44,299 nucleotides of DNA from a virus, in IMG/VR virus record IMGVR_UViG_3300033150_002085, positions 1 through 44,299 of that record; one strand, given 5' to 3'. The position numbers and the translations under genes are program-made. This document shows positions 1,622 to 39,029 of this stretch, in pieces (position 1 is the first letter of the stretch; every line of letters begins with the position of its first letter). Below the pieces are notes generated by a model that ran no database searches, had not been told where the DNA came from, and saw only the letters and a program-made list of their open reading frames with translations.

Positions 1622-1650
1622 TTGCGGGCGTCGGGGGCGGCGGCTAGAAT
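1622..1650 (+). promoter_or_regulatory. Rightward sigma70-like promoter in front of the packaging/head operon
   Basis: -35 TTGCGG (1622-1627), 17-nt spacer, -10 TAGAAT (1645-1650). Direct repeats GCCGCGTGGC at 1567-1576 and 1601-1610 lie just upstream. Confidence 0.5.
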
Positions 1651-1657
1651 GGCCAGC

Positions 1658-2176
1658 ATGGACGAGCGACCCCAACACGACGAGCCGACCGAGCGAATCG
1701 ACCGGACCGGCTGGCCCGAGCCGCCGGAGGGGCGGCGGTACCCGACCGACGAGGAAATCGCCCGGTGGAAGGCCGAAGGGCGATACCGCCCGGGGATGGA
1801 GCGGCTCCAAATGTGGGTGAAGGGCTATTCGGGCAACCCGCAAGGTCGGCCGCGGCGCAAAACGCTCACGCAAATCCTCATCGAGTTGGGCGACGAGGTC
1901 ACCGCGCGGGTCGGCGACCGCGCGCTCACCCGGACCGAGGCGCTCGCGCTGGGCCTGTGGAACGTCCTGCTGGACGCGGCCAAGCGCGGGAAGTTCCGCT
2001 CGGCACAGGTCGACATTCTCAAGCTCGTTGCGGACCACATTTCGCCGAAGCCGCGGAGCATGGAAGACCTCGATGACACCGATGACCGCCCGAAACTCAT
2101 CCGGCCGCCGTTCGCCCTGCCGACCGACCAGCCCGTGAACGGAGGCGAAGAGCACGATGCCCCTGATTGCGATTGA
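1658..2176 (+). CDS. Terminase small subunit candidate (DUF5681-like)
   Basis: Carries an SGNPQGRP motif and overlaps the TerL start by 20 nt. ATG 1658 is about 8 nt after the -10, so the mRNA may be leaderless. Alternative in-frame starts are 1649 and 1622. Confidence 0.6.
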   Translation: MDERPQHDEPTERIDRTGWPEPPEGRRYPTDEEIARWKAEGRYRPGMERLQMWVKGYSGNPQGRPRRKTLTQILIELGDEVTARVGDRALTRTEALALGLWNVLLDAAKRGKFRSAQVDILKLVADHISPKPRSMEDLDDTDDRPKLIRPPFALPTDQPVNGGEEHDAPDCD

Positions 2177-3611
2177 CGCGCAGCCCGCCTCGCGACCGCT
2201 CGGCAAAGGCCAGGCCGCGGTCGCGTCCGACTGGACGCACCGCTTCGTGGCCGCCCAGGGTGGCTGGATGGCGGGCAAGACCTGGGTCGGCGCTCGCAAG
2301 CTGGTCAGCCTGCACATTTATAACGCGTTCGACGACCTCGGCGAGGCCACCTACGTCCCGTCGGTGTGCGTGGCCCCCACCTACTCGAACGCGATGGACT
2401 TCATGGTGCCCGAGCTGCAGGACGCGCTCCGCGAGTCGGGCCTCGCGTGGCGCTGGCGGGCCAGCGGCTCCATCGCCCAGGGCCGGTTCTCTGCGCCGGC
2501 GTTCGTTCTGCCCGACCTCGGCACGGCCAAGAACCCGAGCGTCATTCTCATCCGCACGGCCGTCCAGCCGGAGCGCATCACGGGGTGGCAGGCGGGTGCG
2601 GGGTGGGGCGACGAGCCGGCGCGGTGGCCGACCGACCCCGCCGACCCGAAGCGAGACCCCATCATGCAGCTGCGAGCCCGCGTGCGCCATCCGCGTGCGC
2701 GGTTCCTGCAGCTGCTGTTCACCTACACGAACGAGGGGGACGTCACGCGCATCTATGAGGAGTTCCACAGCGGCCACCCCGACCACGCCCTCTACACCTT
2801 GCCGACAAAGGAGAACCCGCTGGCCGCCGATTTCTACGAGATGCAGCGGTCGCTGCTGCCGCCGCTCCTGGCCAGGCAGTACCTCGAGGGCGAGGCCATC
2901 AACATGCGTGGCGGCAAGGTCTACCCCGACTTCGACGCGTCGAAGCATGTTGACGAGATGCTCGAGCTGAGCCCGAACCTTCCGGTCCACCTCGCCCTCG
3001 ACTTTAACATCGCCCCAGGTATGCATGGCGAAATCGGGCAGTTCTGGCCGGACAAAGACCTCTTCACGGTGGTGCACGAGATTTTCGCGCCGCGCATGAC
3101 CGTCCGGGAGCTGGTCGACGAGGTGGCGAGGGTGCTTCTGGGCACCGAAGGGAAGTGGCGGTGGCCCGGGCCGCTGGAGATTTTCGGCGACGCGACGGGC
3201 CGGGCGGAAAGCGCCTCGACGGGCGAGTCGTGCTATGGTGTCCTCACGCAGGAGCTGCAGGCCCGCAACATTCCGTATCGCATTCGCGTGCCGCGCGCCA
3301 ACCCGCCGGTCGTGGACCGCGTGAACGCGTTCTGTGCAGCCCTGCAGGACGCCGAGGGCGTCGTCCACTGGAAATGCCACCCGCGATGCCGCGAGCTGAT
3401 TGCCGACCTGCGTGAGCTGAACCGCGACGCGTCCGGCCGCATCGCCAAGGCAGACCCCATGCGCTCGCACGCCAGCGACGCGGAAGGGTATCGCATCGCG
3501 TATTTGCGCCCCGCGCGCATCACCGCACGACCCGTGACGAGTCGCATCAGCGTCAATCCGCGGGCCGCGCAAAACAGGAGGAGGATGACCCGTGGCCCTT
3601 CGGTTCTTTGA
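2157..3611 (+). CDS. terL: Terminase large subunit
   Basis: 484 aa. Walker A-like GGWMAGKT and acidic GWGDE segment. Positioned between TerS and the portal. Confidence 0.85.
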   Translation: MPLIAIDAQPASRPLGKGQAAVASDWTHRFVAAQGGWMAGKTWVGARKLVSLHIYNAFDDLGEATYVPSVCVAPTYSNAMDFMVPELQDALRESGLAWRWRASGSIAQGRFSAPAFVLPDLGTAKNPSVILIRTAVQPERITGWQAGAGWGDEPARWPTDPADPKRDPIMQLRARVRHPRARFLQLLFTYTNEGDVTRIYEEFHSGHPDHALYTLPTKENPLAADFYEMQRSLLPPLLARQYLEGEAINMRGGKVYPDFDASKHVDEMLELSPNLPVHLALDFNIAPGMHGEIGQFWPDKDLFTVVHEIFAPRMTVRELVDEVARVLLGTEGKWRWPGPLEIFGDATGRAESASTGESCYGVLTQELQARNIPYRIRVPRANPPVVDRVNAFCAALQDAEGVVHWKCHPRCRELIADLRELNRDASGRIAKADPMRSHASDAEGYRIAYLRPARITARPVTSRISVNPRAAQNRRRMTRGPSVL

Positions 3612-5061
3612 TTTCCTGCGACGCCCGCGAAACCTCCGCGAGCAGACGCCGCCGCAGCACGCCGGCAAAATGACCGCCGCCGCAGCGCTGGCCGATGTGG
3701 AAGGGTTCGGCCTGGCTCCCGCAGGCACCTTCGACACCTACCGCAAGATGCGAGGGAACCCGACCATCGCGATGGCACGCATCGCCGCGCACGCACCTAT
3801 CCGCTCGGCCACGTTCTCGTTCGTCACCGCCGATGACGGCAGCGACGAGCTGCGCGAATGGGTCGAGGAGAAGGTGCGGCCGCTCTGGCCCGTTCTGCTG
3901 CGCGACCTGCTCTACGCCCTCGACTACGGGTTCATGGCCTTTGAGAAGGTGTGGCGCGTGGACGAGGATGGGAAGCTCGTCTACGACCGGCTGAAGCCAC
4001 TCCTGGTCGACAAGACGGTCATCCTCGTGGACGAGAAGACCGGGGCGTATCGAGGCCTGCGCCAGGGCGCGGTCGTCCTGCCGCCCGAGAAGACATTCCT
4101 CTTCACCTACGACGGCGAGGCGGGCGACCTCTACGGCCGCAGCCGGCACGAGAACGTCCGCGAGGCCTGGCACCGCTGGAATAAGCTGGCCGAGCGGCAG
4201 GAGAAGTACATCCGCAAGGTCAGCGGGGTAACGCCCATGGTCGAGTACCCTCCCGGGAGGTCGCTCGACGCCTCGGGTGCCGAGCAGGACAACTACGACC
4301 TAGCGGTGGCGGTGCTCGAGAACCTCGGCCGCGGCCAAGGCGTGGCCATGCCGAACGTCCTGGCGTCCTACGCCGAAGACCTCGTCCGGCAGGGCATCGA
4401 CATCTCCCAGTTGCGAGCGTGGCAGATTGAGTTCCTGGAGCCGAAGTCCTCGCACGGCAGCGAGTTCGTGGAGATGATGCGGCACCTTGAGACGCAGCTC
4501 TGCCGCGGCTGGCTCATCCCTGAGCGGGCGGTCCAGGAGGGCCAGCACGGCACGCTGGCCGAGGCCGAGGCCCACGCCCGCCTGTCGCTGGTCGTGGCTG
4601 AACTGCTCCTGCGCGACATCGCCCGCGCGGTCAACGACTACGTCATCGCACCTCTGCTCGCCGTTAACTTCGGGCAGGAGCGGGCGAAGGAGGTGGCGCT
4701 CGAGCCGCAAGGCCTCGACGCGGCGAACCAGGCCTTTTTCCGCGACCTCCTCTCGAAGGTCATCGGGGCCCCTCAGAACGTGGACCTGTTCCTGGACCTT
4801 CTCGACGTCGACGCGCTGCTCGACATGGCGGACCTGCCACGGCAGCGGAGCGCGAGCGAGGTCGAGCCCCCTCCGCCGGCCGAGAAGGGTGGCGAGGGTG
4901 CTGAGCCGGGTGGCAATGGCGACGGAGCCGTCCGGCCCGAGACCATCGAGGACCGGATGGCCATCCGCGCGGCGAGGCGAAGCCTCCTGCGGTCCATTTA
5001 CGATTCGGAACTCTGGCGAGGGCTGAGGGCCAATGCGACCAGGAGCGATGACCGCGGCTGA
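3592..5061 (+). CDS. Portal protein (Mu gp29/DUF935-like by context)
   Basis: 489 aa. Sits directly after TerL and before the MuF-family gene, with coupled overlaps at both ends. Confidence 0.75.
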
Positions 5062-7714
5062 GCGGCGACGACTCGTCGTCGCGTTGGCCCATCAGCAGGA
5101 CGCTGACCGCAGGCGGCTGGAGCGGGTCGGGCTCCGCGCGGCCAACAACATCGGCCTGCGGATGCTGCGGCGCGCGACCGCGGCCTTCCGCCAGCACGGA
5201 GACCCCCTGGAACCCGTGCGTGAGCTCCTGTTGGGCGACCTCGCCGACGTCGTCCGCGACGGCATGGTGGCCGCCCACTTGCAGGGGCGGTTGCGGTCGC
5301 TGCAGGTGGCGAAGGCCTACTACAGCCGGCGGCAATACCTGAGCGTTTACTCCGACGCGCTGAATTTCCTCTACAAGCGGCTCAACGTCGGCCCGGACGA
5401 CGTGCAGCGCCTCGCCGAAACCTACAGCGAGGCGGCCATCCGGGTTTGCGGCTCGGCCAATGCCCTCCTGGAGAAGCGCGTCTCCCTGGCGATGACGCAG
5501 GCGGTCGGCACGGGTGCCCACGTGGAAGAGGGTGTCGAGCTGCTGCGAGACGCCTTCGCCGCGGCGGGCGTGACGCCGCGAAACCCCTTCTTGCTCGAGA
5601 CGATTTTCCGCACGCAGGTCCAGCTGGCGTACTCGGCTGGGCGGATGTCGGCGAACGCGGACCCGGCCATCGACGAGATTCTGTGGGGCTACGAGTACGT
5701 GACGGTCGGCGACGACCGCGTCCGTCCAACGCACGCCGCCCTCGACGGCATGCGGCTGCCGAAGGACGACCCGCGCTGGGCGGAGTTTACGCCACCGAAC
5801 GGGTGGAACTGCAGGTGCGCCATCGTCGAGATATTCGACAAGGGCACCCCGAAACCTCCGCCCGACACGATTAAGGTCGACGGCCAAGAAGTGCCGGTTC
5901 GCCCGGATGCGGGGTGGGCGTTCAATCCGGGCATGCTCTACCGCGACCTGATGGCGGTGCCCGAAGCCGCGAAGATTGGCCTCGGCTCGCTTGGCGCGGC
6001 TGAGCGGGTGCTGTCAGAACTCGGCCGCCCCGCCACGACCGACGAGATTCTAAACATTGCCATTTCTAAGGGTTATTGGGCACCTGGCGGGAAAACGCCG
6101 AAGTCCACACTCTACGCCGCGCTGATGAAGGAGGCGAAAAAGCCGGCGGGCAAAATCGTGAAGACCGCGCCCAACACCTGGGGGTTGCGGAGCGGCGCGA
6201 AGGTCGCCAAGCCGAAGGCGGTGCCGAAGGCAGCGCCGAAGGCAGCGCCGAAACCGAAACCGAAACCCGCGCCCGAGCCGGCCCCGGCTCCCGCGCCGCC
6301 CGACGTGCCTGTGGTGGAGCCCCAAACCGCGGCCGGCAAGAAGGCGGCGAAGAAGATTCGCCAGCTGGCCGAGGAGGTCGGTGTCCGCGGCGACGTCCCG
6401 GACGAGGCGCTCGAGGCCATCGCGCAGACCGTCGACGACATGAATGCACTATTCTCGAAGGCTCCGAAGTTTCGGAGAATCGTTATTGACGGCACGCCCG
6501 GGCCCGCTGGTGAGATGGCCACTTACCATTCAGCGACGGACACCATTTACATCAACGCAACCGAGATTCGGACGCGGTTTCTCGCCCTCGGCAACGACAA
6601 GCCGTGGCGGGCGTACTCGCTGCACCCGGCGTTCCACGACCAGGTCTACGCATTCGGTGAGTCAGTCGGCGACGTGGTCCGCCACGAAATCGGCCACGCC
6701 CTCTGGCATAAGCTGCCCGAGCAGGCGAAGCAGGCGTGGGGCTCGGTCCACGACCCGTCCTCGCTGCTGGGGAAGCTCTACGCCAAGAAGATGATTACGC
6801 AGTACGGTGCGACCGGCGGGCCGGCCGAGGCCTTCGCCGAGGCGTTCGCCTACTTCACGCACCCCTCGTATGGGGCTTTCGGCTCGCACAACATCATGCC
6901 GTTCCTGCCGGACGACGTGCAGGACTTTTTCCGCAGCATCCTCTACCCCCGCCTCGGCCCCGACATCGCCAACCTCAAGGCCAAGGCGTTCATCGAGGTC
7001 AAGAAGGTTGCCCAGACCGAGACCGCCGAGAAGGTGGTGAAGCACGCCGAGGAGGTCGCCAAGGCCAAGGCCAAGGCGACGACGGCCACGACAAAGGGGA
7101 AGGCGGCCAAGAAGGCCGCCAAGCCGAAAATGCCGGAGGCCGGCGAAAAGGGCCTGCCCACGCTGAGATATGGCTCGAAGGAGTTCGAGCCGCTGCCCAC
7201 CAAGAAGGCGCCCGGCCGGATGACGAAAGACGAAAAGGAGCTGCTGAAGGCCTACACGGGCGACCTCTACGAAGAGCTGAACGACGTCCTTCGCATCAGG
7301 GCCGAGGACTGCAAGCCGTTGTCGAGGCGGTGGGAAGCCACCACCGAGGCGATTCGGAGCGCCCTCTCCAAAATCAAGCCCCACCGCGGCGTCACCTGGC
7401 GGGGCATCGGCCTGCGAGGCAAAAAGAGCTTCCGCCGCATTGTCGAAAGCCACGAGCCCGGGTCGGTGCTCGTGATGGACTCGTTCTGGTCCTCGTCGGT
7501 GAGCGAACGTATCGCCGAGGACTTCGCCAAGGGCTACCCCTACAAGGTCGTTTTCAAAATCAAGGGAAAGACAGGTCGAAACATCAAGAAGTTTTCGTAT
7601 TGTCCATACGAGGACGAAATCCTCTTCGCGCCCGGGACGCGGTACCGGGTCGTCAGCAAAAAGCTTGTCATGCGAGACCCCGAGCACTACCTTATCGAAC
7701 TGGAGGAGTTGTAA
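5048..7714 (+). CDS. Polyvalent head protein: MuF/SPP1 gp7 domain + HARE-HTH-like + zincin metallopeptidase + C-terminal ADP-ribosyltransferase
   Basis: MuF motif [20 protein letters not shown]...NGWNCRC. HTH-like segment [23 protein letters not shown] at 6683-6697. ART R-S-ExE triad: R 7400-7402, SSS 7490-7498, EDE 7610-7618. AKPK/PAP and KA-rich linkers. SD AGGAG precedes ATG 5048. Confidence 0.9.
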
Positions 7715-10590: not shown

Positions 10591-11667
10591 ATGCCCGCAA
10601 GTTTGAGGCAAATTCTCGGCGGCGAGAACCTGACCGGTGTCATCCAGTCGGTCAAGTCCGGCATCCCCGATGTTCTGCCGCCGGCGTTCATGCGGACGCG
10701 GCGGACGGTCGAAGGGAACACCGCCACCTACTTCCGCGTGAAAGGCATCCGCGAGACCGCGCGGCAGACGGCCTACGGGGCCCCGAGCCGACAGCGAGGC
10801 CAGCAGGAGCTGGTCGAGGTGCCGGTGACCCTCATCCACGTGCTGGAAAGCATGTATCACCAGCCGTGGGTGCTGCAGAACCTGCAGGCGGTGGGGTCCG
10901 AGGCGAAGCAGAAGCTCGGCCGCCAGGAAATCGCCCGGCAGACCGCCGAGTTCAAACGGCTCCTGACGAACACGCGGCTGGCCGCCATCTACTCGATGCT
11001 GGCCAAGGGTGCCATCTACTTCGACGGCGACGGCAACCTGCTCCCCTCGTCCAGCGGCGCTGCCATCACGGTGGACTATGGGGTGCCGAGCGGCAACAAG
11101 GACCAGATTGACGACTGGGACACCGCGACGACCGACATCATCGGTGCCATCAACGACCTGAAGAAGACCTGCGTCCAGAAGACCGGCTACCCGCTGCGGC
11201 ACGCCTTTTACGGCGAAAGCATCCTCGGCCTGTTCCTGGCGAACACTTACGTCAAGGAGCTCATCAACAACAACCCGTCGATGGCCGAGGCGGCCTACGG
11301 TCGCGGCGAAATTCCCGACGGGTTCTGCGGGCTGCGGTGGTGGCCCGTCTACCAGTCGTTCTACGTGGACAAGGACGGGAACGTGCAGACGTTCTTCGGC
11401 GCGAACCAGGTCGTGTTCACCCCGGAAATCAACGCCGACGTCTACGAGCTGCTCGAGGGCACCTACCCGGTCCCGACCGACATCGGCCGCGTGGCCTCGG
11501 ACGCCCAGGCGGCCCTCGGCCAGGTTCGGATGGTGTCGGGGCAGTTCTCCTACGCCATCGTGACGGCCGACCCGGTGACCATCAAGCAGGTCGCCGGCGA
11601 CACGTTCCTGCCGGTGTGGAAGAACCCGGACGCCATCTTCATCGAGTCGGACGTCACCAGCTCGTAG
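10591..11667 (+). CDS. Major capsid protein (lambda E-like family)
   Basis: 358 aa. SD GGAAAGGAG. Followed by a hairpin terminator. Position in the head module supports the call. Confidence 0.8.
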   Translation: MPASLRQILGGENLTGVIQSVKSGIPDVLPPAFMRTRRTVEGNTATYFRVKGIRETARQTAYGAPSRQRGQQELVEVPVTLIHVLESMYHQPWVLQNLQAVGSEAKQKLGRQEIARQTAEFKRLLTNTRLAAIYSMLAKGAIYFDGDGNLLPSSSGAAITVDYGVPSGNKDQIDDWDTATTDIIGAINDLKKTCVQKTGYPLRHAFYGESILGLFLANTYVKELINNNPSMAEAAYGRGEIPDGFCGLRWWPVYQSFYVDKDGNVQTFFGANQVVFTPEINADVYELLEGTYPVPTDIGRVASDAQAALGQVRMVSGQFSYAIVTADPVTIKQVAGDTFLPVWKNPDAIFIESDVTSS

Positions 11668-11789: not shown

Positions 11790-12200
11790 ATGGGCAACTA
11801 TATCGACAGCACCTACCTCGCCACCATGTTCGGCGAGGACAACATCCTCGCGTGGTCGGACCTCACGAACGCCTCGGAGATTGCCGACTCGGCGCGGATT
11901 GCGGCGGCCATCAACTGGGCGGAGGCGCAAATCGACGACCGCTTCAGGCGGTCGAGGTGGGAAGTGCCCCTCTCGGGGCCGCCCGAGGTGGTGAAGGTGT
12001 GGGCGGCGAAGCTGGCGGTGGTCTACCTCCTGCAAGACCCCCGGTTCATCGCCAGCGAGACGGCTCGCGAAACACGCGAGGCGTTCCTGCAGGAGGTTCA
12101 CAACGAGATGGCGTCCTACCTCAGCGGCAGCCGCGAATTTTCGGCCACGGAGAACGGGACGCACCCGACCTCGCCGGTGGTCGTCGGTGGCGACGAGTAG
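11790..12200 (+). CDS. Head-tail connector protein (DUF1320/Mu gp36-like)
   Basis: 136 aa. The N-terminus YIDSTYL...AINWAEAQID resembles DUF1320 proteins. Position after the capsid supports the call. Confidence 0.6.
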   Translation: MGNYIDSTYLATMFGEDNILAWSDLTNASEIADSARIAAAINWAEAQIDDRFRRSRWEVPLSGPPEVVKVWAAKLAVVYLLQDPRFIASETARETREAFLQEVHNEMASYLSGSREFSATENGTHPTSPVVVGGDE

Positions 12201-12206
12201 CCACAG

Positions 12207-12380
12207 CGCCTAGACCATATACAGGGGATTTTTTCTGGCGACCTGAAAGTGGGCGAGTACCTATTCTAGGGGTCTAGGTGCCCCTAAACCACGTACTGGC
12301 GCGGACTTACACATAGACCGCGAATTCTAATATCGGTCTAGGAGTCTATGCGAAGACGAAATCGCCAATAGTTGCGTGGC
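12207..12380. repeat. R1: AT-rich intergenic module with multiple (G/A)GTCTAGG boxes, paralog of 38169..38343
   Basis: Aligns along its whole length with R2. A 29-bp core TAGACCGCGAATTCTAATATCGGTCTAGG is identical (12314-12342 = 38277-38305). The 3-prime ends CGAAATCGNCAATAGTTGCGTGGC are shared. Confidence 0.9.
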
Positions 12381-12433
12381 AAAGTGGCCGGGCCGGGCCT
12401 GGCCGTATGAGTGCCTCAGTATAGGCGCAAGCC

Positions 12434-13090
12434 GTGGAGCCTGTGGGCCAGCACTACGACCGCTTCAGGGGCCAGACCGCGACCGTGGTCGGCTGTGGCC
12501 CGACCACCTTCGAGTATGCCGCCGGCTTCCAGGGGCTGCTGGACGGCCCCGTCCTCTTCGTCAACGATGCCGTGCAGCTCGAGCGACACGTCCCGCCTGA
12601 CGTCCCCACCTTCTTCTTCGCGTTCGACCGCCGCCAGCGCGTGTGGCTGCGACCAGCGCTTCGCAGCACGCCCGTCCTGGCTCGTCGCCCTGACCTGCTG
12701 GAGCGGCGGCTTCGCCCGCCGTGGCCGCACCTCTTTGTCGAGGACGGCGACGCCGCGGCGGTCGAGGACCGGCTCGTGTGGTATGACATCCTGCGGCTGA
12801 CCGACGACGCCCTGAAGGCACGCCGCGAGGAGGTCGCCAAGCGGAACATGCTCGTGGTCGGCGGCCTCAGCACGACGTGCACCGCCCTTGCCTACGCCTG
12901 GCTGGCAGGCGTGCGGGCGGTGCGGTTCATCGGATGCCGCGGTGTGGGCCAGGGCCACGACGGGCGTCTCTGCGACGCCACAGGCGGCAAGACCCTCCCG
13001 GGACATTACGCGAAGGCAAGGCGGGCGCTGGACCAGATGGTGCACGCGTTTCGCCTCGAGGCCTGGCACTGGACGGAGGAGCCGAGATGA
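12434..13090 (+). CDS. CstII/Maf(DUF115)-like glycosyltransferase-domain protein, paralog 1
   Basis: 218 aa. TVVGCGPT...PVLFVNDA and AYAWLAGVRAVRFIGC segments are clearly paralogous to the N-terminus of the next gene. GTG start, ATGA-type coupling to the next gene. Confidence 0.7.
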   Translation: MEPVGQHYDRFRGQTATVVGCGPTTFEYAAGFQGLLDGPVLFVNDAVQLERHVPPDVPTFFFAFDRRQRVWLRPALRSTPVLARRPDLLERRLRPPWPHLFVEDGDAAAVEDRLVWYDILRLTDDALKARREEVAKRNMLVVGGLSTTCTALAYAWLAGVRAVRFIGCRGVGQGHDGRLCDATGGKTLPGHYAKARRALDQMVHAFRLEAWHWTEEPR

Positions 13091-14985
13091 GGACGCTGCA
13101 GCACTACGTGAACCGCTACGCCGGACGGCAGTGGGTCATCGTGGGTAAGGGGCCAACGATGCTTCGCCCGGAGACCCTCGCTGACGTCACGGGCCCCGTC
13201 GTTTTCCTGAACGAGGCCGTGCAGTGGAGCCGGTATGCCGTTCGTGCGGTCGAGCGGTTCTGGTTCGCGCACGACGTCGGGATGATGCCGCTCGCCAGGA
13301 ATTCCGACGTCCGGCGGTGCACGCCGGTCCTGCTCGGCAAACCGGAGAAGTCGCGAATGGGCGAGAAGCCCCTGCTCTCCTGGGAGGGGCTGAGGGAAGC
13401 CGGCATTACCCCGCCGGCAGAAGCCGTGGCCTACCAGGGCGAGTGGTGGCCCGTGGATGACCTTCCAGGGGAGCGTGACCGGTTTGGGGTGGCCGCGAGG
13501 GGAGCGCTGTGGTTCGCCGCGGGGACTGTGCATTCAGCCATCAGTTTCGCCTGGCTGGCGGGCGCGTCCGGCATCGTTTTCGTGGGCTGCGACGGACGGC
13601 CCGGCGGCTACGACGACCGCCTCGATACGCGGCAGTCGCAACCCGCCACCGACGCCACCTACGCGAAGATTCGCCGCCTGCAGGACGAGGCTTGTAAGGC
13701 CTGGCGAATCAAGACGACTTACCTCTATGCGACCCGCGTGCCGCCCGAGCAGTCGCCGGTCCCCCCGCAAATCCACGTCGTGTGGATGCCGCCCGAGAAG
13801 GACCGTGGCGTCGGCAAGCAGGTGATGCGCCGCCTCAGCCGGCTTCGCATCGCTGCGGCCCGCCACGACATCGACGTCCACGTGTGGCACAACCCCGTCA
13901 AGGAGTCGGGCACGCCGCCCGCCGTTCTCCGCCGCATGGCTGACCTGCCGTTGCGATGCCAGCAGGTGGACCTTTGGCGGCTGTGGCTGCTCTACCGCTA
14001 CGGCGGCATCTACATGGACGTCGACATGCGGCCGGTCGGCGACCTGTCGCTGCTCCGTCGCTGGCCCTTGGCGGCGGCTCGCCAGTCCGACGGGCGGGTG
14101 AATAACGCCGTCATCGCCGCCGAGCCTGGCCATCCCGCCCTGGCCGCGGTGCTGGACGCGGCGCTGAAGGAGCCGCTCGAGGCCCGCGCGTCGCTCGGCC
14201 CGAACCTGCTGACGCGGTTCGCCGAGACCGAAGACCCCTGGACGCTGTGGGCGGAGTGGCTGGTCTACCCGTTCCAGTCAGCCGGGGTCCTGGCGTCCTG
14301 TTCGGACGTGGAGGCCTACCTGGCGAAGTTCCCTCAACGACCTGTCCTCCTGCACGAGTGGGGCATCGGGGGGTCGGGCAGGATGCCGTCATTCGGCCGC
14401 GGCGACGCGTGGCTCTATCGCCTGGGTGCGAGGTTCGGGCGCAGCCCTCTGCGGCTGGCGGAGGTCGGCGTGCTGGCCGGACGGCTGTCGCAGTACATCC
14501 TCGCCCGCGGAATCATCGAGAAGTATTACATGGTCGACGTGTGGCGGGTGCCGCCGCCCGACAGTCGCTACGCGAGGTCCGGTGACGCCGTGGCCGAGAT
14601 GTCCGAGTCCCAGATGCGGAAGACGCGGGAGGACGCCCTGGCCCAGGCCAGGAAGTTCAAACCGTGGACGGCGGTCCTGGAGAAGCCGTCGGTCGAGGCG
14701 GCCAAGGACGTGCCGGACGGTTCGCTGGACAGCGTGTTCATCGACGCAGACCACACATTCGAGGGGACTCTGGAAGACCTGCGAGCGTGGGCACCGAAGG
14801 TGCGCCCGGGCGGCCTGCTCGCCGGGCACGACTGGGAAAGCCCGGCTGACCCTGGCTGGCCGGACAACCCGCGATGGGGAGTTCGCCAGGCGGTCGAGGC
14901 GTTCTTGGCGGAGCAGGGGTGGCCCGCGGACGGCATCGAGCTTGGAGGGGAGACGACGTGGTTCTACCAGGTGCCGTGGCGATGA
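13087..14985 (+). CDS. Three-domain enzyme: CstII/Maf-like transferase + DXD glycosyltransferase (Gly_transf_sug-like) + class I SAM methyltransferase (Methyltransf_24-like)
   Basis: 632 aa. N-terminal VIVGKGPT...VVFLNEA...FAWLAGASGIVFVGCDG. Middle WRLWLLYRYGGIYMDVDM, with DVD at 14017-14025. C-terminal FIDADHTFEGTLEDLRAWAPKVRPGGLLAGHDW. Confidence 0.85.
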   Translation: MRTLQHYVNRYAGRQWVIVGKGPTMLRPETLADVTGPVVFLNEAVQWSRYAVRAVERFWFAHDVGMMPLARNSDVRRCTPVLLGKPEKSRMGEKPLLSWEGLREAGITPPAEAVAYQGEWWPVDDLPGERDRFGVAARGALWFAAGTVHSAISFAWLAGASGIVFVGCDGRPGGYDDRLDTRQSQPATDATYAKIRRLQDEACKAWRIKTTYLYATRVPPEQSPVPPQIHVVWMPPEKDRGVGKQVMRRLSRLRIAAARHDIDVHVWHNPVKESGTPPAVLRRMADLPLRCQQVDLWRLWLLYRYGGIYMDVDMRPVGDLSLLRRWPLAAARQSDGRVNNAVIAAEPGHPALAAVLDAALKEPLEARASLGPNLLTRFAETEDPWTLWAEWLVYPFQSAGVLASCSDVEAYLAKFPQRPVLLHEWGIGGSGRMPSFGRGDAWLYRLGARFGRSPLRLAEVGVLAGRLSQYILARGIIEKYYMVDVWRVPPPDSRYARSGDAVAEMSESQMRKTREDALAQARKFKPWTAVLEKPSVEAAKDVPDGSLDSVFIDADHTFEGTLEDLRAWAPKVRPGGLLAGHDWESPADPGWPDNPRWGVRQAVEAFLAEQGWPADGIELGGETTWFYQVPWR

Positions 14986-21210: not shown

Positions 21211-21770
21211 ACCCCAACCTGCCGAAACAAGAGGTCGGCAAGCCGATTCGCGCGGCGACGCTTAACGCCTACCGCGACGCCATCCAGCGGGCGATGCGGT
21301 GGGCGGCACAGCGCGGGGTCCGCGGCGTGTCGGCCAACGCGTTCTTCGCCAAGCTCACGGACTCCTGGTCGCCTGGCACGGGGGCGATGGAGTACTCATG
21401 GCAGGAAGTCGTGCCCGCCCAGGAGTCGTCCGGGACCATCACGTGGACGGCGGTGGGTCGCAGCGGCGACGTGAACACCGACCGCGCGGCGTATGGGCTC
21501 GAAGGCGGGCGGCGTCTCGACACCGACACGATTGTCCTGATGGTCGAGGTAGTGGCGGCCGACGGCCGGCCGCTCTACGTTTTCCTGGACGGCGTGCGGC
21601 CGCCGAAGTTCTGGTTCGTCCCGCCCATCTGCCGGCCGCTCGTCGTAGACGACACCGGCCAAATCGTCGGCTGGTATTACGAGTCTGGCCCCGACCAGCT
21701 CTGGCATTCGCCATGGGGCTACGACGACCCCGGCGTGGGCACGAACTCAAGCGGCTGGGGCGAACTCTAG
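21207..21770 (+). CDS. Minor tail / tip protein candidate
   Basis: 187 aa, coupled to the previous gene. It is the last gene before strong terminators. Confidence 0.6.
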   Translation: MNPNLPKQEVGKPIRAATLNAYRDAIQRAMRWAAQRGVRGVSANAFFAKLTDSWSPGTGAMEYSWQEVVPAQESSGTITWTAVGRSGDVNTDRAAYGLEGGRRLDTDTIVLMVEVVAADGRPLYVFLDGVRPPKFWFVPPICRPLVVDDTGQIVGWYYESGPDQLWHSPWGYDDPGVGTNSSGWGEL

Positions 21771-21791
21771 ACCCAGTCGCACCCCGCCCGC

Positions 21792-21825
21792 CCCGGTGGC
21801 CGACACGGCCGCCGGGCTTTTTTTT
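21792..21825 (+). terminator. Rho-independent terminator ending the structural operon
   Basis: Stem CCCGGTGGCCG/CGGCCGCCGGG followed by T8. A second hairpin CGCCCC/GGGGCG with a T-run lies at 21843-21878. Confidence 0.75.
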
Positions 21826-23311: not shown

Positions 23312-23473
23312 GCCGCGCGTGTGGCCGTGTGTGCGGCCTGCCGGCGGGGTGGCCCTTAGACGCGACGGCCACCGCGATAGGCCGCCAGGGGCCAACGTGG
23401 GCCGCGAGACGCCGCCCCCGGGCGACCATGCCTGCGGCCCCTGGCGGCCACCGGCCGCGGCGAAAAAAATCGG

Positions 23474-23520
23474 AAAATCCCAGGATTTTGCCTTGACAAC
23501 TCGACGAAAACCGCTAGAAT
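23474..23520 (+). promoter_or_regulatory. Sigma70-like promoter with palindromic operator
   Basis: Operator AAAATCCCAGGATTTT (23474-23489), -35 TTGACA (23493-23498), 16-nt spacer, -10 TAGAAT (23515-23520). Confidence 0.7.
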
Positions 23521-28982: not shown

Positions 28983-30710
28983 ATGAGCCTCGCCGCCCAG
29001 TTCTTGCGCGCGTTCTTCAACAACGCCAACGACGACGAGTTCTACGCGTGCCTGTGGACTCCCCGGCAACGCCCCTTCTTCTTCAAATGGCCAAGCGAGG
29101 TCGACAAAGCCGCCGCCCAGGCAGACAAGTGGACCGAGGCCAGGCGCGACGTCTACTTCCGGGCGACGCTCCTGCGGTCGCCGCCGAAAACAGGACGCGG
29201 GACAGCGGCCGACACCGCGGCCCTCGTGGGCGTGTGGGCGGACATTGACATTGCCGGGCCGGCGCACCGCAAGCAGGGCCTGCCCCTGTCGGAGGAGGTC
29301 GCTCGCAAGCTGCTCATGGCGTTCGGGCCGCCGCCCTCACTGCTGTGGCACAGCGGCCACGGCCTCCAGGCGGCGTGGCTGTTCGATGAGGCCTGGGTGC
29401 TTGACACCCCCGAGGAGCGCAAGCGGGCTGCGGAGTTCTGCAAGCGGTGGTCCGACACCCTGCTGGCGACCGCCGCGGCCCGCGGCTTGACGGTGGACCC
29501 CACGGGTGACCTCGCGAGGGTTCTGCGACTGCCCGGGACCGTCAACTACAAGGCCGAGCCCGTCGCCGTCCGCGTCCTCGAACCCGAAGACGTCGTTGTG
29601 CGGCGGACGTATGACCCGACGGACCTCGCCGAGTTCGCCACAGTCGTGGCCGCGCCTCGCCGCGAGACGCCGCCGTCCTCGTCGGGCGGCGGCGTGAACA
29701 TTTCGGCAAGTGTCATCACGCCGACGGCCAACCCGCCCGCCGAGAAGCTCGTCGCCCTGCTGTCGAACAGCGAGAAGTTCCGCAAGTCGTGGGGGCGGGC
29801 GAGGCCGGACCTGCCCGACCAGTCCGCGTCGGCATACGACCTGTCGCTGGCGACCATTGCAGTGGCAGCGGGCTGGACGGACGACGAGGTGGCCGCGCTG
29901 CTCATTGCGTGGGGCCGCCAGCACCGCAGCCAGGACGAGCACCCCGACAAGCCCCTTCGCAGGGACTACCTCGAACGGACCATCGCCCTGGCTCGGCGGT
30001 CGGTCCGCGAGAACATTGCCGAGGCCGAAGCCGTGGACGAGCACCTTGCCAGGGAAGCCGCCGGCGGCGGCCGCGAAAGCACGCTCAAACTCCTGCGACG
30101 GAAACTCGGCATTCCGCTCGAGGCCGTCATCAAGCGGGGTTGCCGGCACGGGGCACGCTACAGTTTCCTGCTCGACGACGGCCGCGAAGTGCCTATCGGC
30201 ACCTCGTCGGTGCTGCTGTCGCCGACGCGCGTGGCCGCGGCCGTGTTCGACAGCCTCGACTATCGCATTCCGCAGTTCACCGCGAAGGAGTGGCGGAAGG
30301 TCGTCAACCTGCTCAAGCCCGTCATGCGCGTCGTGGACCTCGTCGAGGACGACCGCGCCACCGAGACCCTCGGCTGGGTAGCGGAGTACATTGAGGGCCG
30401 CACGGTTTACCCGGAAGACCGGTGGGCCGAGGCCCTGCCCCAACGCGAACCCTTCCAGCGTGGCGAGAAGGTCTACGTCCACAGCGGCGAAATTCAGCGC
30501 CACCTCGCCATCGTCTCCGACCTTCGCATCGAGAAGCGTGAGCTGCTTGCACGCTTGTCCGAGGCCGGCTTCGAGACCGAGAAGGTCACCGCGTGGGTGC
30601 CTTCCGCGAAGCAGACCATTGGCCGGTCATACTGGGCCATTGAAATGGCCAAGTTAACCGGCAAGGACGCCGCAAATGCCGAGACCGCGCAAGCCCGTTC
30701 AGCTGAGTAA
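28983..30710 (+). CDS. Primase-polymerase (AEP prim-pol) replication protein
   Basis: 575 aa. Motifs WADIDI, HSGHGLQAAWLF and LRLPGTVNYK match the archaeo-eukaryotic primase catalytic pattern. SD GAAGGAGGG. Confidence 0.8.
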   Translation: MSLAAQFLRAFFNNANDDEFYACLWTPRQRPFFFKWPSEVDKAAAQADKWTEARRDVYFRATLLRSPPKTGRGTAADTAALVGVWADIDIAGPAHRKQGLPLSEEVARKLLMAFGPPPSLLWHSGHGLQAAWLFDEAWVLDTPEERKRAAEFCKRWSDTLLATAAARGLTVDPTGDLARVLRLPGTVNYKAEPVAVRVLEPEDVVVRRTYDPTDLAEFATVVAAPRRETPPSSSGGGVNISASVITPTANPPAEKLVALLSNSEKFRKSWGRARPDLPDQSASAYDLSLATIAVAAGWTDDEVAALLIAWGRQHRSQDEHPDKPLRRDYLERTIALARRSVRENIAEAEAVDEHLAREAAGGGRESTLKLLRRKLGIPLEAVIKRGCRHGARYSFLLDDGREVPIGTSSVLLSPTRVAAAVFDSLDYRIPQFTAKEWRKVVNLLKPVMRVVDLVEDDRATETLGWVAEYIEGRTVYPEDRWAEALPQREPFQRGEKVYVHSGEIQRHLAIVSDLRIEKRELLARLSEAGFETEKVTAWVPSAKQTIGRSYWAIEMAKLTGKDAANAETAQARSAE

Positions 30711-31146
30711 GGCCGAGCAGCGGGTCTACGCAGCGCTGCGCGTGATGGCCACGCACGTGGGGTTCTGTGCAGTCGTCCTCTTGCACCGCGACGGCCCCCA
30801 GACCGTGCGTCACCTCGCCAAGCGCGCCGGCGCGACGCATGCAGCGATGGCGGCCGCGCTTCGCCGCCTGGCCAAGTGCGGCCTGGTGGAGGAGGCCGCG
30901 CCGGCGAGAAGGGGACCCGGCGGGGAACCTGCGAGGTGGCGGCTGGCCCGCGTCAACCTCGGCGGGGTCATCGACTGGTTCTCGGAGCTGGCCGACGCGT
31001 GCTTGGAGGCCGCCGAGCGTGGCATCGTTCCCAGCGGCAAGTCCCGGGAGCCCGGCGCGATGGCCGCGATGCGACGGCTGCGAAGCCTGCTCGAGGACGG
31101 CCAAAACGGTGACGGCGACAGCGACGGCGACGATTTGGAGTGGTAA
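30676..31146 (+). CDS. Winged helix-turn-helix (MarR-like) DNA-binding protein
   Basis: 156 aa. VRHLAKRAGATHAAMAAALRRLAKCGLVEE looks like a wHTH recognition segment. Overlaps the prim-pol gene end. Confidence 0.6.
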   Translation: MPRPRKPVQLSKAEQRVYAALRVMATHVGFCAVVLLHRDGPQTVRHLAKRAGATHAAMAAALRRLAKCGLVEEAAPARRGPGGEPARWRLARVNLGGVIDWFSELADACLEAAERGIVPSGKSREPGAMAAMRRLRSLLEDGQNGDGDSDGDDLEW

Positions 31147-31278: not shown

Positions 31279-31325
31279 AAAATCCCAGGATTTTGCCTTG
31301 ACGCATTGTCATTCGCCGGTAATGT
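31279..31325 (+). promoter_or_regulatory. Sigma70-like promoter with palindromic operator
   Basis: Operator AAAATCCCAGGATTTT (31279-31294), -35 TTGACG (31298-31303), 16-nt spacer, -10 TAATGT (31320-31325). Confidence 0.7.
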
Positions 31326-33231: not shown

Positions 33232-33662
33232 TGGATGGTGTTGAAAGCGTCGTGTGGGCCGTTGCTTTCGTGGTCATCGTTCTCGTGCTTTTCAGCCGCC
33301 GGAAACGGCCAGCCCCGGAGGAGCGGCGGCGGGCCAAGACGTCGCCGCAGGTGTTCGAGGCGGGGCTGCTCAAGGTCCGCATCGAGCGAGGCCTCCCGGG
33401 CGGCAGGTGGCGGTGCGACATTTTCTCGCCGCAGGGGTCCGCGCAGATTGAAATCAAGAAGGACGACCCGCTCGCGAGCGACCGCGAAATGGCCCGGCGG
33501 GTGGTCCGGTTCCTGCGAGACCTGGCCAACAACCCCGCGGTGATGCTGAGAAGCTGGGAGCTTCCCGAGGCGAAGGAGGACGCCCTCAACGCCCTGGACA
33601 CTGCGCTGCAGCTCAAGCCCTACCTCGACCATGCATGCGCCGATTTGGAGGAAAATCGATGA
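33231..33662 (+). CDS. Hypothetical membrane-anchored protein, paralog B of a tandem pair
   Basis: 143 aa. N-terminal TM helix VVWAVAFVVIVLVLF. Shares RVVRFL...ALQLKPYLD with the previous gene. Confidence 0.55.
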   Translation: MDGVESVVWAVAFVVIVLVLFSRRKRPAPEERRRAKTSPQVFEAGLLKVRIERGLPGGRWRCDIFSPQGSAQIEIKKDDPLASDREMARRVVRFLRDLANNPAVMLRSWELPEAKEDALNALDTALQLKPYLDHACADLEENR

Positions 33663-34462
33663 GCGCCGTCTCGTGCCAGCCGACATTTTCACGCCGCGCG
33701 TCGGGGCTCTACGTGCCAGCGCGACTCCGCCGCCCCGTGGCCATCGACCTGTTCTGCGGCTGCGGAGGGATGAGCCTCGGTTTCATTCAGGCGGGGTTCG
33801 AGGTCGTGGCTGCCTTGGACAACAACCCCGCGGCGGCGACGACCTACATGTATAACCTGGGTGCGTATCCGTGCCAGTTCCACTTCGCCGACGACGACGC
33901 CCGCGACCGTCTGGAGCGGCACCTCGCCAAGTCGATGCAGAACCAGCATGGCGTCGCCGTGATGCCCGTATCGGGCGGGGCCAGGGCCGACGGGCCGTTC
34001 GAGGGTTGGCCGGAGGGGTATCCCGGCGTCCAGCACTTCTTTTTCGGCGACGCGCGGGCGTTCACCGGTGAGCAGATTCTCGAGGCCGTCGGCTTGGAAC
34101 CCGGCGCGGTGGACTGCGTGTGCGGTGGACCGCCCTGCCAGGGGTTCACTCGGGCCAACCGCTATCGCGGCCCGGACGACCCGCGAAATAACCTGGTTTT
34201 CGAGTTCGCCCGCCTAGTCCTCGAAATTCGGCCGAAGACCATCCTGATGGAGAACGTGCCCGAAATCGCCTCGATGATGACCCCCGAGGGCATCTCGGTC
34301 CTGGACAAGTTCTGCCTCATCCTGGAAGAGGGCGGGTTCGCCGCGGCCGACGCACTGAAGCGCGTGCTGCTCGCCAAGCCGGGTGCCCGCGTGTGCCGGC
34401 GGGCACAGGCGTCGAAGCCGAAACCTGAACCGCGCGCAAGCAATCAGCCCATGCTGTTCTGA
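33659..34462 (+). CDS. DNA (cytosine-5) methyltransferase, N-terminal half only
   Basis: 267 aa. Motif I DLFCGCGG, motif IV GGPPCQGFT and motif VI ENVPE are present. I see no QxRxR, TRD or GNAVP motifs before the stop. Confidence 0.8.
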   Translation: MSAVSCQPTFSRRASGLYVPARLRRPVAIDLFCGCGGMSLGFIQAGFEVVAALDNNPAAATTYMYNLGAYPCQFHFADDDARDRLERHLAKSMQNQHGVAVMPVSGGARADGPFEGWPEGYPGVQHFFFGDARAFTGEQILEAVGLEPGAVDCVCGGPPCQGFTRANRYRGPDDPRNNLVFEFARLVLEIRPKTILMENVPEIASMMTPEGISVLDKFCLILEEGGFAAADALKRVLLAKPGARVCRRAQASKPKPEPRASNQPMLF

Positions 34463-35013: not shown

Positions 35014-35297
35014 AAGTCACCGAACGCGAAGCCGACGAGGCACTGGTCCCGGCCGAATGGCACGACCCGCAACCGCGGCACGTCGCCGAACGCGCCCTGA
35101 CCGCCCTCATCCAGTGGGGCTACGAGCGCACGAAAGACCTCGACGAGACCACCCGCTGGGTGTTCAGTGAAGCGCACGCCGTCCTGCTCGATGCGGTGAG
35201 CCGCCTCGCCGACGAGGAAGCCGCCGAGCGGCCGAACGAGGGGCTGATGGAGGCCGTCCAGGCCTACCTCGACGACACGCGAAACGTGCTGGAATGA
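34998..35297 (+). CDS. Hypothetical protein
   Basis: 99 aa from ATG 34998 with SD GAGGAGGGAGG upstream. Confidence 0.5.
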   Translation: MRDRLKVTEREADEALVPAEWHDPQPRHVAERALTALIQWGYERTKDLDETTRWVFSEAHAVLLDAVSRLADEEAAERPNEGLMEAVQAYLDDTRNVLE

Positions 35298-36217
35298 GCG
35301 ACGCCGCGCAAGAACTCGACCAGGCCGTCACCGAGCACCTCGAAGGTGCCAGCCGCGTGATGGCCCCCATCGGGTGGTTCGGCGGGAAAGGTCTCCACGC
35401 CAAACGCCTCGTCCCGCACATTCCGTGGTCCCGCGTCTACTGCGAGCCCTACTGCGGGGCGGCCAGCGTGTTCTGGCACCTGCAGCCGCGGCCCGTCGAG
35501 GTGCTCAACGACCTGAACGGGGAAATCATCGCCCTTTTCCGGTGCCTGCAGGACCGCGCGCTGTTCGAGGAGCTCCGTCACCGCCTTCTGTGGACGCCTT
35601 ACAGCCGCGCCGAGTTCTGCCGTGCCCTCGAGACGCCCGCCGACGCCCCGCTCCTCGACCGCGCCTGGGCGACGTTCGTCAAGTACAACCAGGGTACCTG
35701 CGGCGTGGGGCAAACACCTGGCAACTGGGGAAGGGTGTTCACCGCTGCGAACGGGATGGCCAACGTCGCCAGCAAGTGGCGCGTCCGCCTACGGCTCCTC
35801 AAGGCCTGGCACGACCGCCTGACCCGCGTCCAACTCGACAACCGCGACGCCCTCGAGGTTATCCGCTACTGGGACACGCCGGACACGTTTTTCTACGTCG
35901 ACCCGCCCTACGTGCCCGAGACGCGAAGCAGCACGCAGGTCTACCGGTGCGAAGCGACCGCCGACCACCACCGCGACCTCGTCGCGCTCCTCCTCACACT
36001 GAGGGGTGGCGCAGCCGTAAGCGGGTATGACCACCCGATTTACAGGCCCCTCGAGGACGCCGGGTGGGAGCGGCACGAATTCGAGACCGTTTGCCACGCC
36101 GCCGCTCGGACGCGCACCAGTGCCCTGCAGGGCAAGGGGGCCCTGGAGGCGCGCGTGCCGCGAACCGAAGTCGTATGGGTGAAGCCGCTCAAGACGGGCG
36201 GCCTGTTCCCGTTGTAG
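35294..36217 (+). CDS. dam: DNA adenine methyltransferase (Dam/D12 class)
   Basis: 307 aa. Motif I-like EPYCGAASVF and catalytic DPPY (FFYVDPPY). ATGA coupling. Confidence 0.85.
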   Translation: MSDAAQELDQAVTEHLEGASRVMAPIGWFGGKGLHAKRLVPHIPWSRVYCEPYCGAASVFWHLQPRPVEVLNDLNGEIIALFRCLQDRALFEELRHRLLWTPYSRAEFCRALETPADAPLLDRAWATFVKYNQGTCGVGQTPGNWGRVFTAANGMANVASKWRVRLRLLKAWHDRLTRVQLDNRDALEVIRYWDTPDTFFYVDPPYVPETRSSTQVYRCEATADHHRDLVALLLTLRGGAAVSGYDHPIYRPLEDAGWERHEFETVCHAAARTRTSALQGKGALEARVPRTEVVWVKPLKTGGLFPL

Positions 36218-36241
36218 GCCGCCAAACGAAAGGAGTGCGAA

Positions 36242-36478: not shown

Positions 36479-36505
36479 CGCGGCAGCCGCCGCGAAGGAG
36501 ACGCC

Positions 36506-38343: not shown

Positions 38344-38399
38344 TCGCTCGCCGCCGCCGCCGCCAGGAAAAAAGCGCCCATATAGTCTAGGAGCCCAGC

Positions 38400-38944: not shown

Positions 38945-39029
38945 CGCGCCGCGAGTTTTGATTTCGCGTTTGACGACCGCACCACTCCGCCGCTACCCTA
39001 ATCCGTGACGCCAGGTGGTGGAGGTGGAG

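Follow-up and report, generated by a model that had tools for sequence, protein, structure and literature searches.

Two paralogous intergenic modules, R1a and R1b, were analysed in the virus record IMGVR_UViG_3300033150_002085, and the whole sequence of this record (44,299 bp, 67% GC) is called the window here. R1a lies between the gene of a Mu gp36-like adaptor and a 218-aa gene, which is followed by a glycosyltransferase/methyltransferase gene; R1b lies between the genes of a UvrD-like helicase and a VRR-NUC protein, and it includes the last 8 nt of the helicase gene. Both copies were oriented as the genes around them, and each downstream gene had its own ribosome-binding site. An earlier note, made from the letters of the sequence, had described R1a as an AT-rich module with a direct paralog, at the upstream boundary of a glycosylation cassette, and this description held in the gene order assigned by Pfam and PHROGs scans (Table 1).

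Alignment with MAFFT and a repeat search showed that R1a and R1b shared 69% identity over the 175 columns of the module. The conservation was patchy beyond chance, with a longest identical run of 29 nt (P = 0.0004) and a window variance of identity that was reached by 0 of 20,000 shuffles. The identical 29-mer, which the earlier note had counted by hand, and the common 3' end were confirmed, the latter within a near-identical 25-mer at the 3' end of both copies. The GC content was 51% in R1a and 47% in R1b against 67% in the window, and R1b and R1a were, in this order, the two 174-bp windows of lowest GC content in the sequence. A third copy was not found in the window by blastn-short.

CTAG had been judged sparse outside the modules, and it occurred 22 times in the window against 58 ± 7 expected from shuffles, a 2.6-fold depletion. 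Ten of the 22 fell within the two intergenic spacers, which make up 1% of the sequence (binomial P about 1e-14). All 8 exact copies of GTCTAGG were in or beside the R1 modules, as were 9 of the 10 TCTAGG hexamers, the tenth being located in the leader of the gene of a 62-aa probable ribbon-helix-helix (RHH) protein. The motif was thus extremely enriched at R1.

Each copy carried seven boxes with the consensus (A/G)GTCTAGG (motif GGTCTAGG). Measured from the TAATAT hexamer to the start of each box, the positions were alike in R1a and R1b: -119 (reverse), -64 and -56/-57 (forward), -16 (reverse), and +8 and +16/+17 (forward), with box 7 further downstream. The DNA between the boxes had diverged strongly, down to near-random identity, with no indels, and the spacing therefore appears to be constrained. 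TAATAT was located in the identical 29-nt core, flanked by TAGACCG and CGGTCTA, within the 13-nt spacer CGAATTCTAATAT of an inverted repeat that measured 7 bp (R1a) or 8 bp (R1b) and ended about 80 nt upstream of box 7. The box order and the conserved -10-like hexamer were as the earlier note had given them; its six boxes were present, to which a seventh forward box per copy and a weak reverse box in R1a were added, and its inverted repeat around the core stood, with a spacer of 13 nt in place of 12. Further conserved blocks held no box, namely the 3' block ACGAAATCGNCAATAGTTGCGTGGC, a T run past box 1 and, some 20 nt upstream of TAATAT, GGACTTA.

Table 1. Features of the R1 modules, of the window and of the box arrays in other viral records; positions refer to the window unless a record is named
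Feature	Position	Strand	Remarks
R1a, conserved part of the cassette	12206-12380	+	whole spacer 12201-12433 belongs to it; adaptor/218-aa gap
R1a box 1 CCTAGACC	12209-12216	-	T6 run follows at 12230-12235
R1a boxes 2 and 3, TTCTAGG and GTCTAGG (-64 and -56)	12264-12278	+	tandem, 8 nt apart
R1a weak reverse box CCTAAAC	12283-12289	-	added to the first set of boxes
R1a box 4 CATAGACCG	12312-12320	-	left arm of the inverted repeat
R1a TAATAT, -10-like hexamer	12328-12333	+	in the 13-nt spacer of the inverted repeat; opposite strand TAGAAT
R1a boxes 5 and 6, CGGTCTAGG and AGTCTATG	12334-12350	+	tandem, 8 nt apart; box 5 is the right arm
R1a block V ACGAAATCGCCAATAGTTGCGTGGC	12356-12380	+	box-free; 1 of 25 positions differs from R1b
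R1a box 7 GTATAGG	12419-12425	+	15 nt before GTG 12434; provides AGG of the ribosome-binding site
R1b, conserved part of the cassette	38169-38343	+	spacer to 38399; UvrD-like helicase/VRR-NUC gap
R1b box 1 CCTAGACC	38172-38179	-	T run follows
R1b boxes 2 and 3, GTCTAGG and degenerate TTCTAAGG (-64 and -57)	38227-38241	+	
R1b box 4 GCTAGACCG	38275-38283	-	left arm of the 8-bp inverted repeat
R1b TAATAT, -10-like hexamer	38291-38296	+	
R1b boxes 5 and 6, CGGTCTAGG and AGTCTAGG	38297-38314	+	tandem, 9 nt apart
R1b block V ACGAAATCGACAATAGTTGCGTGGC	38319-38343	+	
R1b box 7 GTCTAGG	38385-38391	+	15 nt before GTG 38400; overlaps AGGAG ribosome-binding site of VRR-NUC
Identical 29-mer TAGACCGCGAATTCTAATATCGGTCTAGG	12314-12342 and 38277-38305		
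Common 3' end CAATAGTTGCGTGGC	12366-12380 and 38329-38343		
Terminal direct repeat, 114 nt	1-114 = 44186-44299		repeat search
Terminase genes	1622-3611		large subunit of Terminase_6 type, T4/headful type
Mu-type portal	after terminase genes		Pfam/PHROGs
888-aa fusion: MuF-like head protein, HARE-HTH, ADP-ribosyltransferase toxin domain	5048-7714		
Major capsid protein	10603-11667		
Mu gp36-like adaptor	11790-12200		directly before R1a
218-aa gene	GTG start 12434		directly after R1a
Glycosyltransferase/methyltransferase	13087-14985		after 218-aa gene
Tail genes	up to 21792-21816		end at strong terminator
Early/replication block	after tail genes		DUF932, SNF2 helicase, primase-like, MarR-like, two DNA methylases, UvrD-like helicase
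Sigma-70-type promoter TTGACA-16-TAGAAT	23493-23520	+	
Related promoter sites	about 1350-1380; about 31290	-; +	
Intergenic repeat family with promoters and AAAATCCnnGGATTTT	1337-1411; 23443-23520; 31279-31322	-; +; +	second repeat family
Primase-like (AEP-type) 575-aa protein	28983-30710		
MarR-like protein	30676-31146		
C5-cytosine methyltransferase	33659-34462		
Dam-like N6-adenine methyltransferase	35294-36217		
UvrD-like helicase	36506-38176		stop codon TAG 38174-38176
VRR-NUC gene	38400-38750		GTG start 38400; directly after R1b
65-aa open reading frame, then terminator-like site	terminator-like site 38936-38955		after VRR-NUC
ParB_N domain fused to N6/N4 DNA methylase	42018-43367		
Nucleoside 2-deoxyribosyltransferase-like gene	43364-43741		
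62-aa probable RHH protein	43823-44011	-	candidate box binder
Sigma-70-type promoter TTGACA-16-TAGAAT of RHH gene	44071-44044	-	leader TCTAGG 44029-34; element 44028-44071
GCCTAGAC/GTCTAGGC arrays, 10-12 boxes	L041 2500-2800; L044 75-350; L053 5365-5640		9- and 12-nt spacing
RfaH/UpxY-like NusG paralogue	L045 7796-8383	-	first gene of terminase operon, directly downstream of box module

A mini open reading frame (ORF) of 7 codons was seen downstream of box 5 (R1a 12348-12371, ATG CGA AGA CGA AAT CGC CAA TAG; R1b 38314-38334, GTG GAA CGA AAT CGA CAA TAG), with the common end ...RNRQ* and one difference in the shared part, which was synonymous. It is probably non-coding, since its upstream part was not conserved.

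The boxes could also act in RNA, with the cassette transcribed within the long RNA of the operon, as a conserved leader of the kind that the earlier note had proposed. The reverse boxes CCUAGACC would then pair with the Shine-Dalgarno-like forward boxes GGUCUAGG, and would mask or expose a ribosome-binding site or make a processing site. In both copies box 7 was the ribosome-binding site, and AGGAG, AGGTG or AGGGG was read in the forward boxes. RNAalifold drew one helix between boxes 1 and 2/3 and another between boxes 4 and 5, and the single change in block V fell in a predicted loop. However, Rfam 15 gave no match at the gathering score in the whole window, and the folding energy was not below that of shuffles (z = -1.8 and -0.35 for R1a, +1.0 and +2.35 for R1b), R1b folding worse than its shuffles. 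RNAalifold showed no compensatory change in the box helices, in a comparison of two sequences in which covariation says little, and the boxes of other viruses occurred in both orientations to transcription. The leader was thus not borne out, and we consider an RNA element highly improbable.

No cultured relative was matched by blastn or by tblastn with the capsid protein, and the terminase matches reached at most 27% identity. The capsid relatives of 41-55% identity belonged to genome bins of Tepidisphaerales, Humisphaera and other Planctomycetota, together with one Candidatus Falkowbacteria and one uncultured bacterium. To our knowledge, phage gene regulation is essentially unknown in Planctomycetota hosts. 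The relatives found by capsid (up to 58% identity) or helicase (up to 41%) had no CTAG clusters and no spacer at either junction. The adaptor gene of L019 (capsid 57% identical) overlaps, by ATGA, a gene homologous to the 218-aa gene (E = 1e-22 at 28% identity), and the gap at this junction was 12 nt in L021; at the other junction, the helicase and VRR-NUC genes of L006 overlap, and the helicase/VRR-NUC stretch of L009 was wholly coding. Because the flanking gene pairs abut or overlap in relatives, both spacers of about 230 nt are lineage-specific insertions, and one copy was presumably derived from the other. Conservation of the module in related phages, which the earlier note had looked to, was thus absent among capsid relatives, while the boxes themselves recurred in unrelated viruses.

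Searches with the R1a and R1b regions gave no match by blastn in 50,697 phage records and none in plasmids. Exact and degenerate patterns of the core were absent from IMG/VR, JGI metagenome contigs and GTDB genomes; the JGI scan did not return the window's own contig, which that collection may lack. A literature search for the bare motif returned primer lists only.

Insertion at two junctions would also be expected of selfish or relic DNA, that is, of a small non-autonomous element, mobile or spread by recombination, which entered two permissive intergenic sites and does nothing for the phage. Both copies are insertions between genes that abut in relatives, and similar boxes were found in unrelated viruses, which agrees with such an origin. 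Against it, terminal inverted repeats and target-site duplications were not seen by eye at the ends, there were only two copies and none in other collections, and conservation in patches, with the box spacing kept, indicates that the boxes are under selection. We give selfish DNA very little credence.

The phage uses promoters of the form TTGAC(A/G)-16-TAGAAT/TAATGT elsewhere, so the host polymerase reads such -10 elements. Factor-dependent promoters usually show a -10 element, wrapped in binding sites, without a -35. Neither R1a nor R1b contained a terminator-like site, and inspection by eye gave no usable sigma-54 match in R1. The arrangement GGACTT-N17-TCTAA resembles the sigmaE/AlgU consensus; it was set aside for want of a detected phage sigma factor and of a known host.

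Few dedicated DNA-binding proteins were detected by the Pfam scans, namely the MarR-like protein and the 62-aa protein. The latter matched Pfam RHH_1 with E = 0.002, below the cut-off, and ParD-like CopG/Arc/MetJ proteins of the PDB with E about 1e-3; its AF2 model had an extended N-terminus and two helices, for which Foldseek listed ParD and Reg576 RHH proteins, not significantly. The promoter of the RHH gene was the strongest of the genome, and the sole TCTAGG outside R1 was located a few nt past its -10. A site just downstream of the -10 is in the classical position for autoregulation. The chance that the lone remaining TCTAGG would fall in the promoter of one of a handful of regulators is about 1%, a post hoc figure, and the link between the RHH protein and the boxes is suggestive. 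A word-indexed search with the RHH protein found only itself, and one distant relative in IMG/VR was encoded by an AT-rich contig without arrays.

With a probability of roughly 0.45, we propose that R1a and R1b are a portable promoter/operator cassette in front of two gene blocks. They would be paralogous, self-contained cis-regulatory cassettes placed between otherwise tightly coupled genes, and since the flanking genes abut in relatives, the cassette would add a new start point. Each copy would hold a weak, factor-dependent promoter, with TAATAT as its -10-like element and without a -35, amid the seven boxes. The inverted box pair (-16, +8) brackets the -10-like hexamer, with a tandem partner 8-9 bp downstream; the tandem pair (-64/-56) and the lone reverse box (-119) lie upstream, and the last box is on the ribosome-binding site of the next gene. 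A putative oligomerising, sequence-specific protein may occupy the boxes, and this occupancy would set the timing of transcription start in, or passage into, the glycosylation/tail block downstream of R1a and the VRR-NUC gene with its small ORF downstream of R1b. Repression by occlusion would be the simplest reading of the sign of regulation. Anatomy, enrichment, box spacing, insertion and recurrence of the arrays are observed features, whereas promoter activity, protein binding, the binder's identity and the sign of regulation are inferred from them. The best candidate for the binder is the phage's 62-aa RHH protein, with its sigma-70-type promoter and one box in its own leader.

The promoter/operator cassette is favoured by the geometry around the -10, the gene-parallel orientation, the box on the ribosome-binding site, the insertion between coupled genes, the box in the RHH leader and the composite motif of Group B described below, which is directed at a late operon. 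Among the roles that the earlier note had suggested, a binding-site array for a sequence-specific protein fitted best, in view of the enrichment, the fixed box positions and the arrays in unrelated viral contigs. A partition-like site found no such footing: the ParB_N domain was fused to a DNA methylase, and the Pfam scans gave no ParA- or ParM-like hit.

Scanning of IMG/VR for GGTCTAGG-N0-2-AGTCTAGG gave 25 loci, most of which were lone matches inside genes, and real arrays were present in three groups. Group A (L039, L041, L044, L048 and L053; 64-67% GC) had about six reverse and six forward boxes around a GC-rich centre with a TTATAG-like element. The array was located between a Toprim/DUF5906 primase-helicase gene and a helix-turn-helix (HTH) small-terminase gene, with a gpA-type large-terminase gene next in L044 and L053. 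The arrays of L041, L044 and L053 surround a run of alternating CG/CA and have a P4-type primase-helicase neighbour, and the GTCTAGG box was identical in the L041-type contigs. Stenotrophomonas phage S1 (NC_011589, L054) was a cultured relative of Group A (primase 41.5% identical) and showed the same architecture in the same location, but with another box, ATGTGCGGG. At 2460-2745 of S1, about 6 ATGTGCGGG and about 6 CCCGCACA stood around a centre with GGGCGGGCGCG and TATATAG. This DNA is annotated as a coding sequence (hypothetical protein gp2, 2454-2804) between the primase and small-terminase genes, and is probably a cos or origin-type site, not a gene; no paper on the S1 array was found in the literature.

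The place of these arrays raises the possibility that R1 is a site for packaging or another DNA transaction, its boxes being bound by the small terminase, like the R sites of lambda cosB, or by a recombination protein, and R1 being a secondary or relic signal for packaging or recombination. The Group A and S1 arrays lie directly upstream of HTH small-terminase and gpA-type large-terminase genes, which is the place of a lambda-type cos, and their GC-rich centre is like that of cohesive ends. In the window, however, the terminase genes were 5.7 kb and 10 kb from the R1 copies, the large subunit was of T4/headful type and not gpA, the 114-nt end repeat was unrelated to R1, and the small-terminase candidate had no homology to the Group A protein. 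A packaging role for R1 is very unlikely. Together, the packaging, RNA and selfish readings take up just under a quarter of our expectation, and the remainder is kept for something not considered.

The module of Group B (L043 and L045; 50% GC) was AT-rich and contained GACTTAC together with the boxes CGGTCTAGG and CCTAGACCG. Its coding strand read CTAATAT-AA-CGGTCTAGCGGTTTAGG, and this composite points at an RfaH/UpxY-like gene that is followed by terminase genes. The composite CTAATAT-N0-2-CGGTCTAG with a second box was common to R1 and Group B only, the other 37 hits being lone chance matches. In Group C (L051; 57% GC), two reverse boxes were separated from a downstream TATATAGAGAGGTGGTCTAGGTAGTCTAGGT by AT-rich DNA of about 100 nt, and a 749-aa primase-like gene followed some 800 nt further on. 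In Groups A and C, a TATA-like hexamer stood 2-8 nt upstream of a tandem forward pair pointing at the downstream genes. No protein was common to the window and the array-bearing contigs, or to the groups, at BLAST level, in a search that covered about 10 kb each for Groups B and C. The 9-mer GCCTAGACC, with a T run after it, and the composite CTAATAT-CGGTCTAG speak against chance alone.

Since arrays adjoin primase or terminase genes in at least three unrelated groups, an origin-like role is a serious rival. The boxes would then be iterons for a replication initiator or primase, such as the 575-aa primase-like protein (the C-terminus of which was unusable in the structure model, at pLDDT 50), or for a helicase, and the inverted pair with the AT-rich 13-mer between its arms would be a mini origin core. 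The two copies would be like ori and crr of the satellite phage P4, two iteron clusters bound by one primase-helicase. In all three groups the boxes form a dyad with an AT-rich or TATA-like centre, and the array has a primase(-helicase) gene as neighbour: Toprim+DUF5906 primase, array and small-terminase gene in Group A, a helicase-C-terminus-like ORF and then the array in Group B, and the primase-like gene downstream of the array in Group C. Origins of SF3 helicases have inverted initiator sites around an AT-rich centre, and the layout of the arrays resembles them. The window encodes a primase-like protein and has no identified origin; R1 offers a cluster of seven boxes per copy, and the cumulative GC skew had a sharp local minimum exactly at R1b.

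Against an origin, neither copy adjoined the primase-like gene, R1a was inside the structural gene block, and the AT-rich centre was only 13 nt long, in a module that is the most AT-rich DNA of the genome. The array-bearing contigs had no protein in common with the window, and a box on the ribosome-binding site and a gene-parallel orientation would be unexpected. The skew minimum coincided with the boundary of three genes of odd composition (Dam-like methylase, 78-aa gene and UvrD-like helicase; 35300-38176, + strand), in which most 300-nt windows had a GC skew of -0.11 to -0.25, so a gene-content effect is possible; the anomaly could reflect a foreign origin of these genes or a replication-related signal. 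We rate an origin as unlikely.

Several observations also weigh against the promoter/operator cassette. R1a and R1b had no -35, and a sigma-70 consensus scan found 0 sites in either copy. The conserved blocks without boxes (GGACTTA, block V and the T run) fall outside its explanation, the shared orientation of two copies is a 50% event, and the arrays of Groups A, B and C adjoin primase/helicase genes, which would fit an origin too. The RHH assignment rests on weak scores, the RHH leader box scored poorly and was absent among the sites above 9 on the box weight matrix, and no RHH homologue was found in the array-bearing contigs. The different box of S1 shows that, in at least one family, the box and a phage-specific binder vary together, and the common GTCTAGG could therefore be partly coincidence.

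A wider proposition, which we regard as doubtful, is that R1 belongs to an undescribed class of phage control elements that spread horizontally, each being a dyad array in which 8-9-mer boxes flank a TATA-like centre. If so, such elements would stand where replication genes give way to late or packaging genes in unrelated phage lineages, namely the window, the S1-like cos phages, the RfaH-encoding phages and the prim-pol phages. As no protein common to these lineages is detectable, the recurrence of one box would mean either that many phages exploit a conserved host factor to time their late switch, or that a box and its small binder move between phages as a portable pair, and in the present phage the cassette would have been copied to two new junctions and have rewired the timing of the glycosylation/tail block and the nuclease gene. 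If the recurrence of the box is not coincidence, a shared factor or mobile regulatory unit would time late functions in many phages. R1 provides a testable handle, with a box of 7-8 nt, a candidate 62-aa regulator and two target junctions, and the analysis flags a conserved, unannotated primase/terminase array in S1-like phages.

In the rest of the window, the 114-nt end repeat makes the genome look complete, either circular or with terminal repeats. A 64%-identical copy of this repeat was located 103 nt upstream, at 44083-44196, and the right end thus holds a short tandem-like repeat. According to codon-position GC, nearly all genes from 1622 onward were on the + strand, and three genes near the window ends were on the - strand. 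The 888-aa fusion is probably a virion-borne effector that is injected with the DNA. The three DNA methyltransferases and the 2-deoxyribosyltransferase-like gene suggest a heavy investment in DNA modification. No tRNA or tmRNA was found in the whole window. The palindrome AAAATCCnnGGATTTT precedes 3 of the 4 sigma-70-type promoter sites of Table 1; the promoters of this family (TTGACA/TTGACG-16-TAGAAT, TAATGT or TAAATA) are probably early promoters with a common operator or UP-like element, and one copy drives a minus-strand amidoligase gene. The site GGTCTAGA on the - strand at 21765-21772 had a 7/8 match to the box, overlapped the stop codon of the last gene of the tail block and was 20 nt before the strongest terminator of the genome (21792-21816).

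Among known systems, R1 would work most like a portable regulatory cassette of the PeSL type. In the PeSL (promoter-early stem-loop) cassettes of T4-type phages, a strong sigma-70 promoter with both -35 and -10 is combined with a stable G/C stem-loop at which transcription terminates, and dozens of copies occur in hyperplastic regions (Arbiol et al. 2010, PMC2839356). R1 is likewise a repeated, AT-rich intergenic cassette that extends from a stop codon to the next start (R1a fills 12201-12433 and R1b 38177-38399), with an inverted repeat overlapping the -10 and a Shine-Dalgarno sequence at the 3' end, and it appears portable between gene junctions. In contrast to PeSL, R1 had no -35 but only TAATAT, its stem of 7-8 bp enclosed a 13-nt loop, it lacked any terminator-like site and folded no better than shuffles, and it consisted of two copies with an array of seven short boxes.

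In Cluster K mycobacteriophages, the 13-mer start-associated sequence (SAS) GGGATAGGAGCCC lies 3-7 bp upstream of the starts of 11-19 genes per genome. The extended SAS (ESAS) immediately precedes it and consists of imperfect inverted repeats of 17 bp, 4-13 bp apart, and a phage or host factor is suspected (Pope et al. 2011, PMC3203893). R1 resembles them in having an asymmetric motif on the ribosome-binding site a few nt before the start, with inverted repeats upstream. Box 7 of R1b, GTCTAGGAGCCC, has TAGGAGCCC in common with SAS (9/13 match, in R1b only), and this match is probably a Shine-Dalgarno coincidence. R1 differs in that its module is 175 bp long, has seven 8-mer boxes, of which only box 7 is on a ribosome-binding site, and occurs at two genes in another host lineage, and its inverted repeat of 7-8 bp with a 13-nt spacer stands about 80 nt upstream of box 7.

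RHH operators (MetJ metboxes, P22 Arc/Mnt, pSM19035 omega and ParG) have boxes of 7-8 bp in tandem and inverted orientation, about 7-11 bp apart, to which dimers bind cooperatively, and serve autoregulation. MetJ is an RHH protein that binds tandem AGACGTCT boxes with CTAG at the junctions every 8 bp (GTCTAGAC). The tandem pairs of R1, 8-9 nt apart, and its reverse and forward boxes are similar, a resemblance to MetJ geometry that is a lead and not a test; R1 differs in its asymmetric box (GGTCTAGG) and in having boxes over 130 bp with a distal one at the ribosome-binding site. With ori and crr of P4, R1 shares octamer-like boxes in both orientations, two clusters kilobases apart and a dyad around an AT-rich or TATA-like centre. 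The junctions of S1 and L041/L044/L053 have 10-12 boxes beside the primase gene, whereas R1 has 7, away from the primase-like gene and parallel to transcription. Unlike a lambda-type cos, R1 is not directly upstream of terminase genes, and the terminase of the window is not of gpA type. R1 thus departs from the defining features of PeSL, SAS/ESAS and cos, should not be classed with any of these, and is best described as an element of the iteron/operator-array kind.

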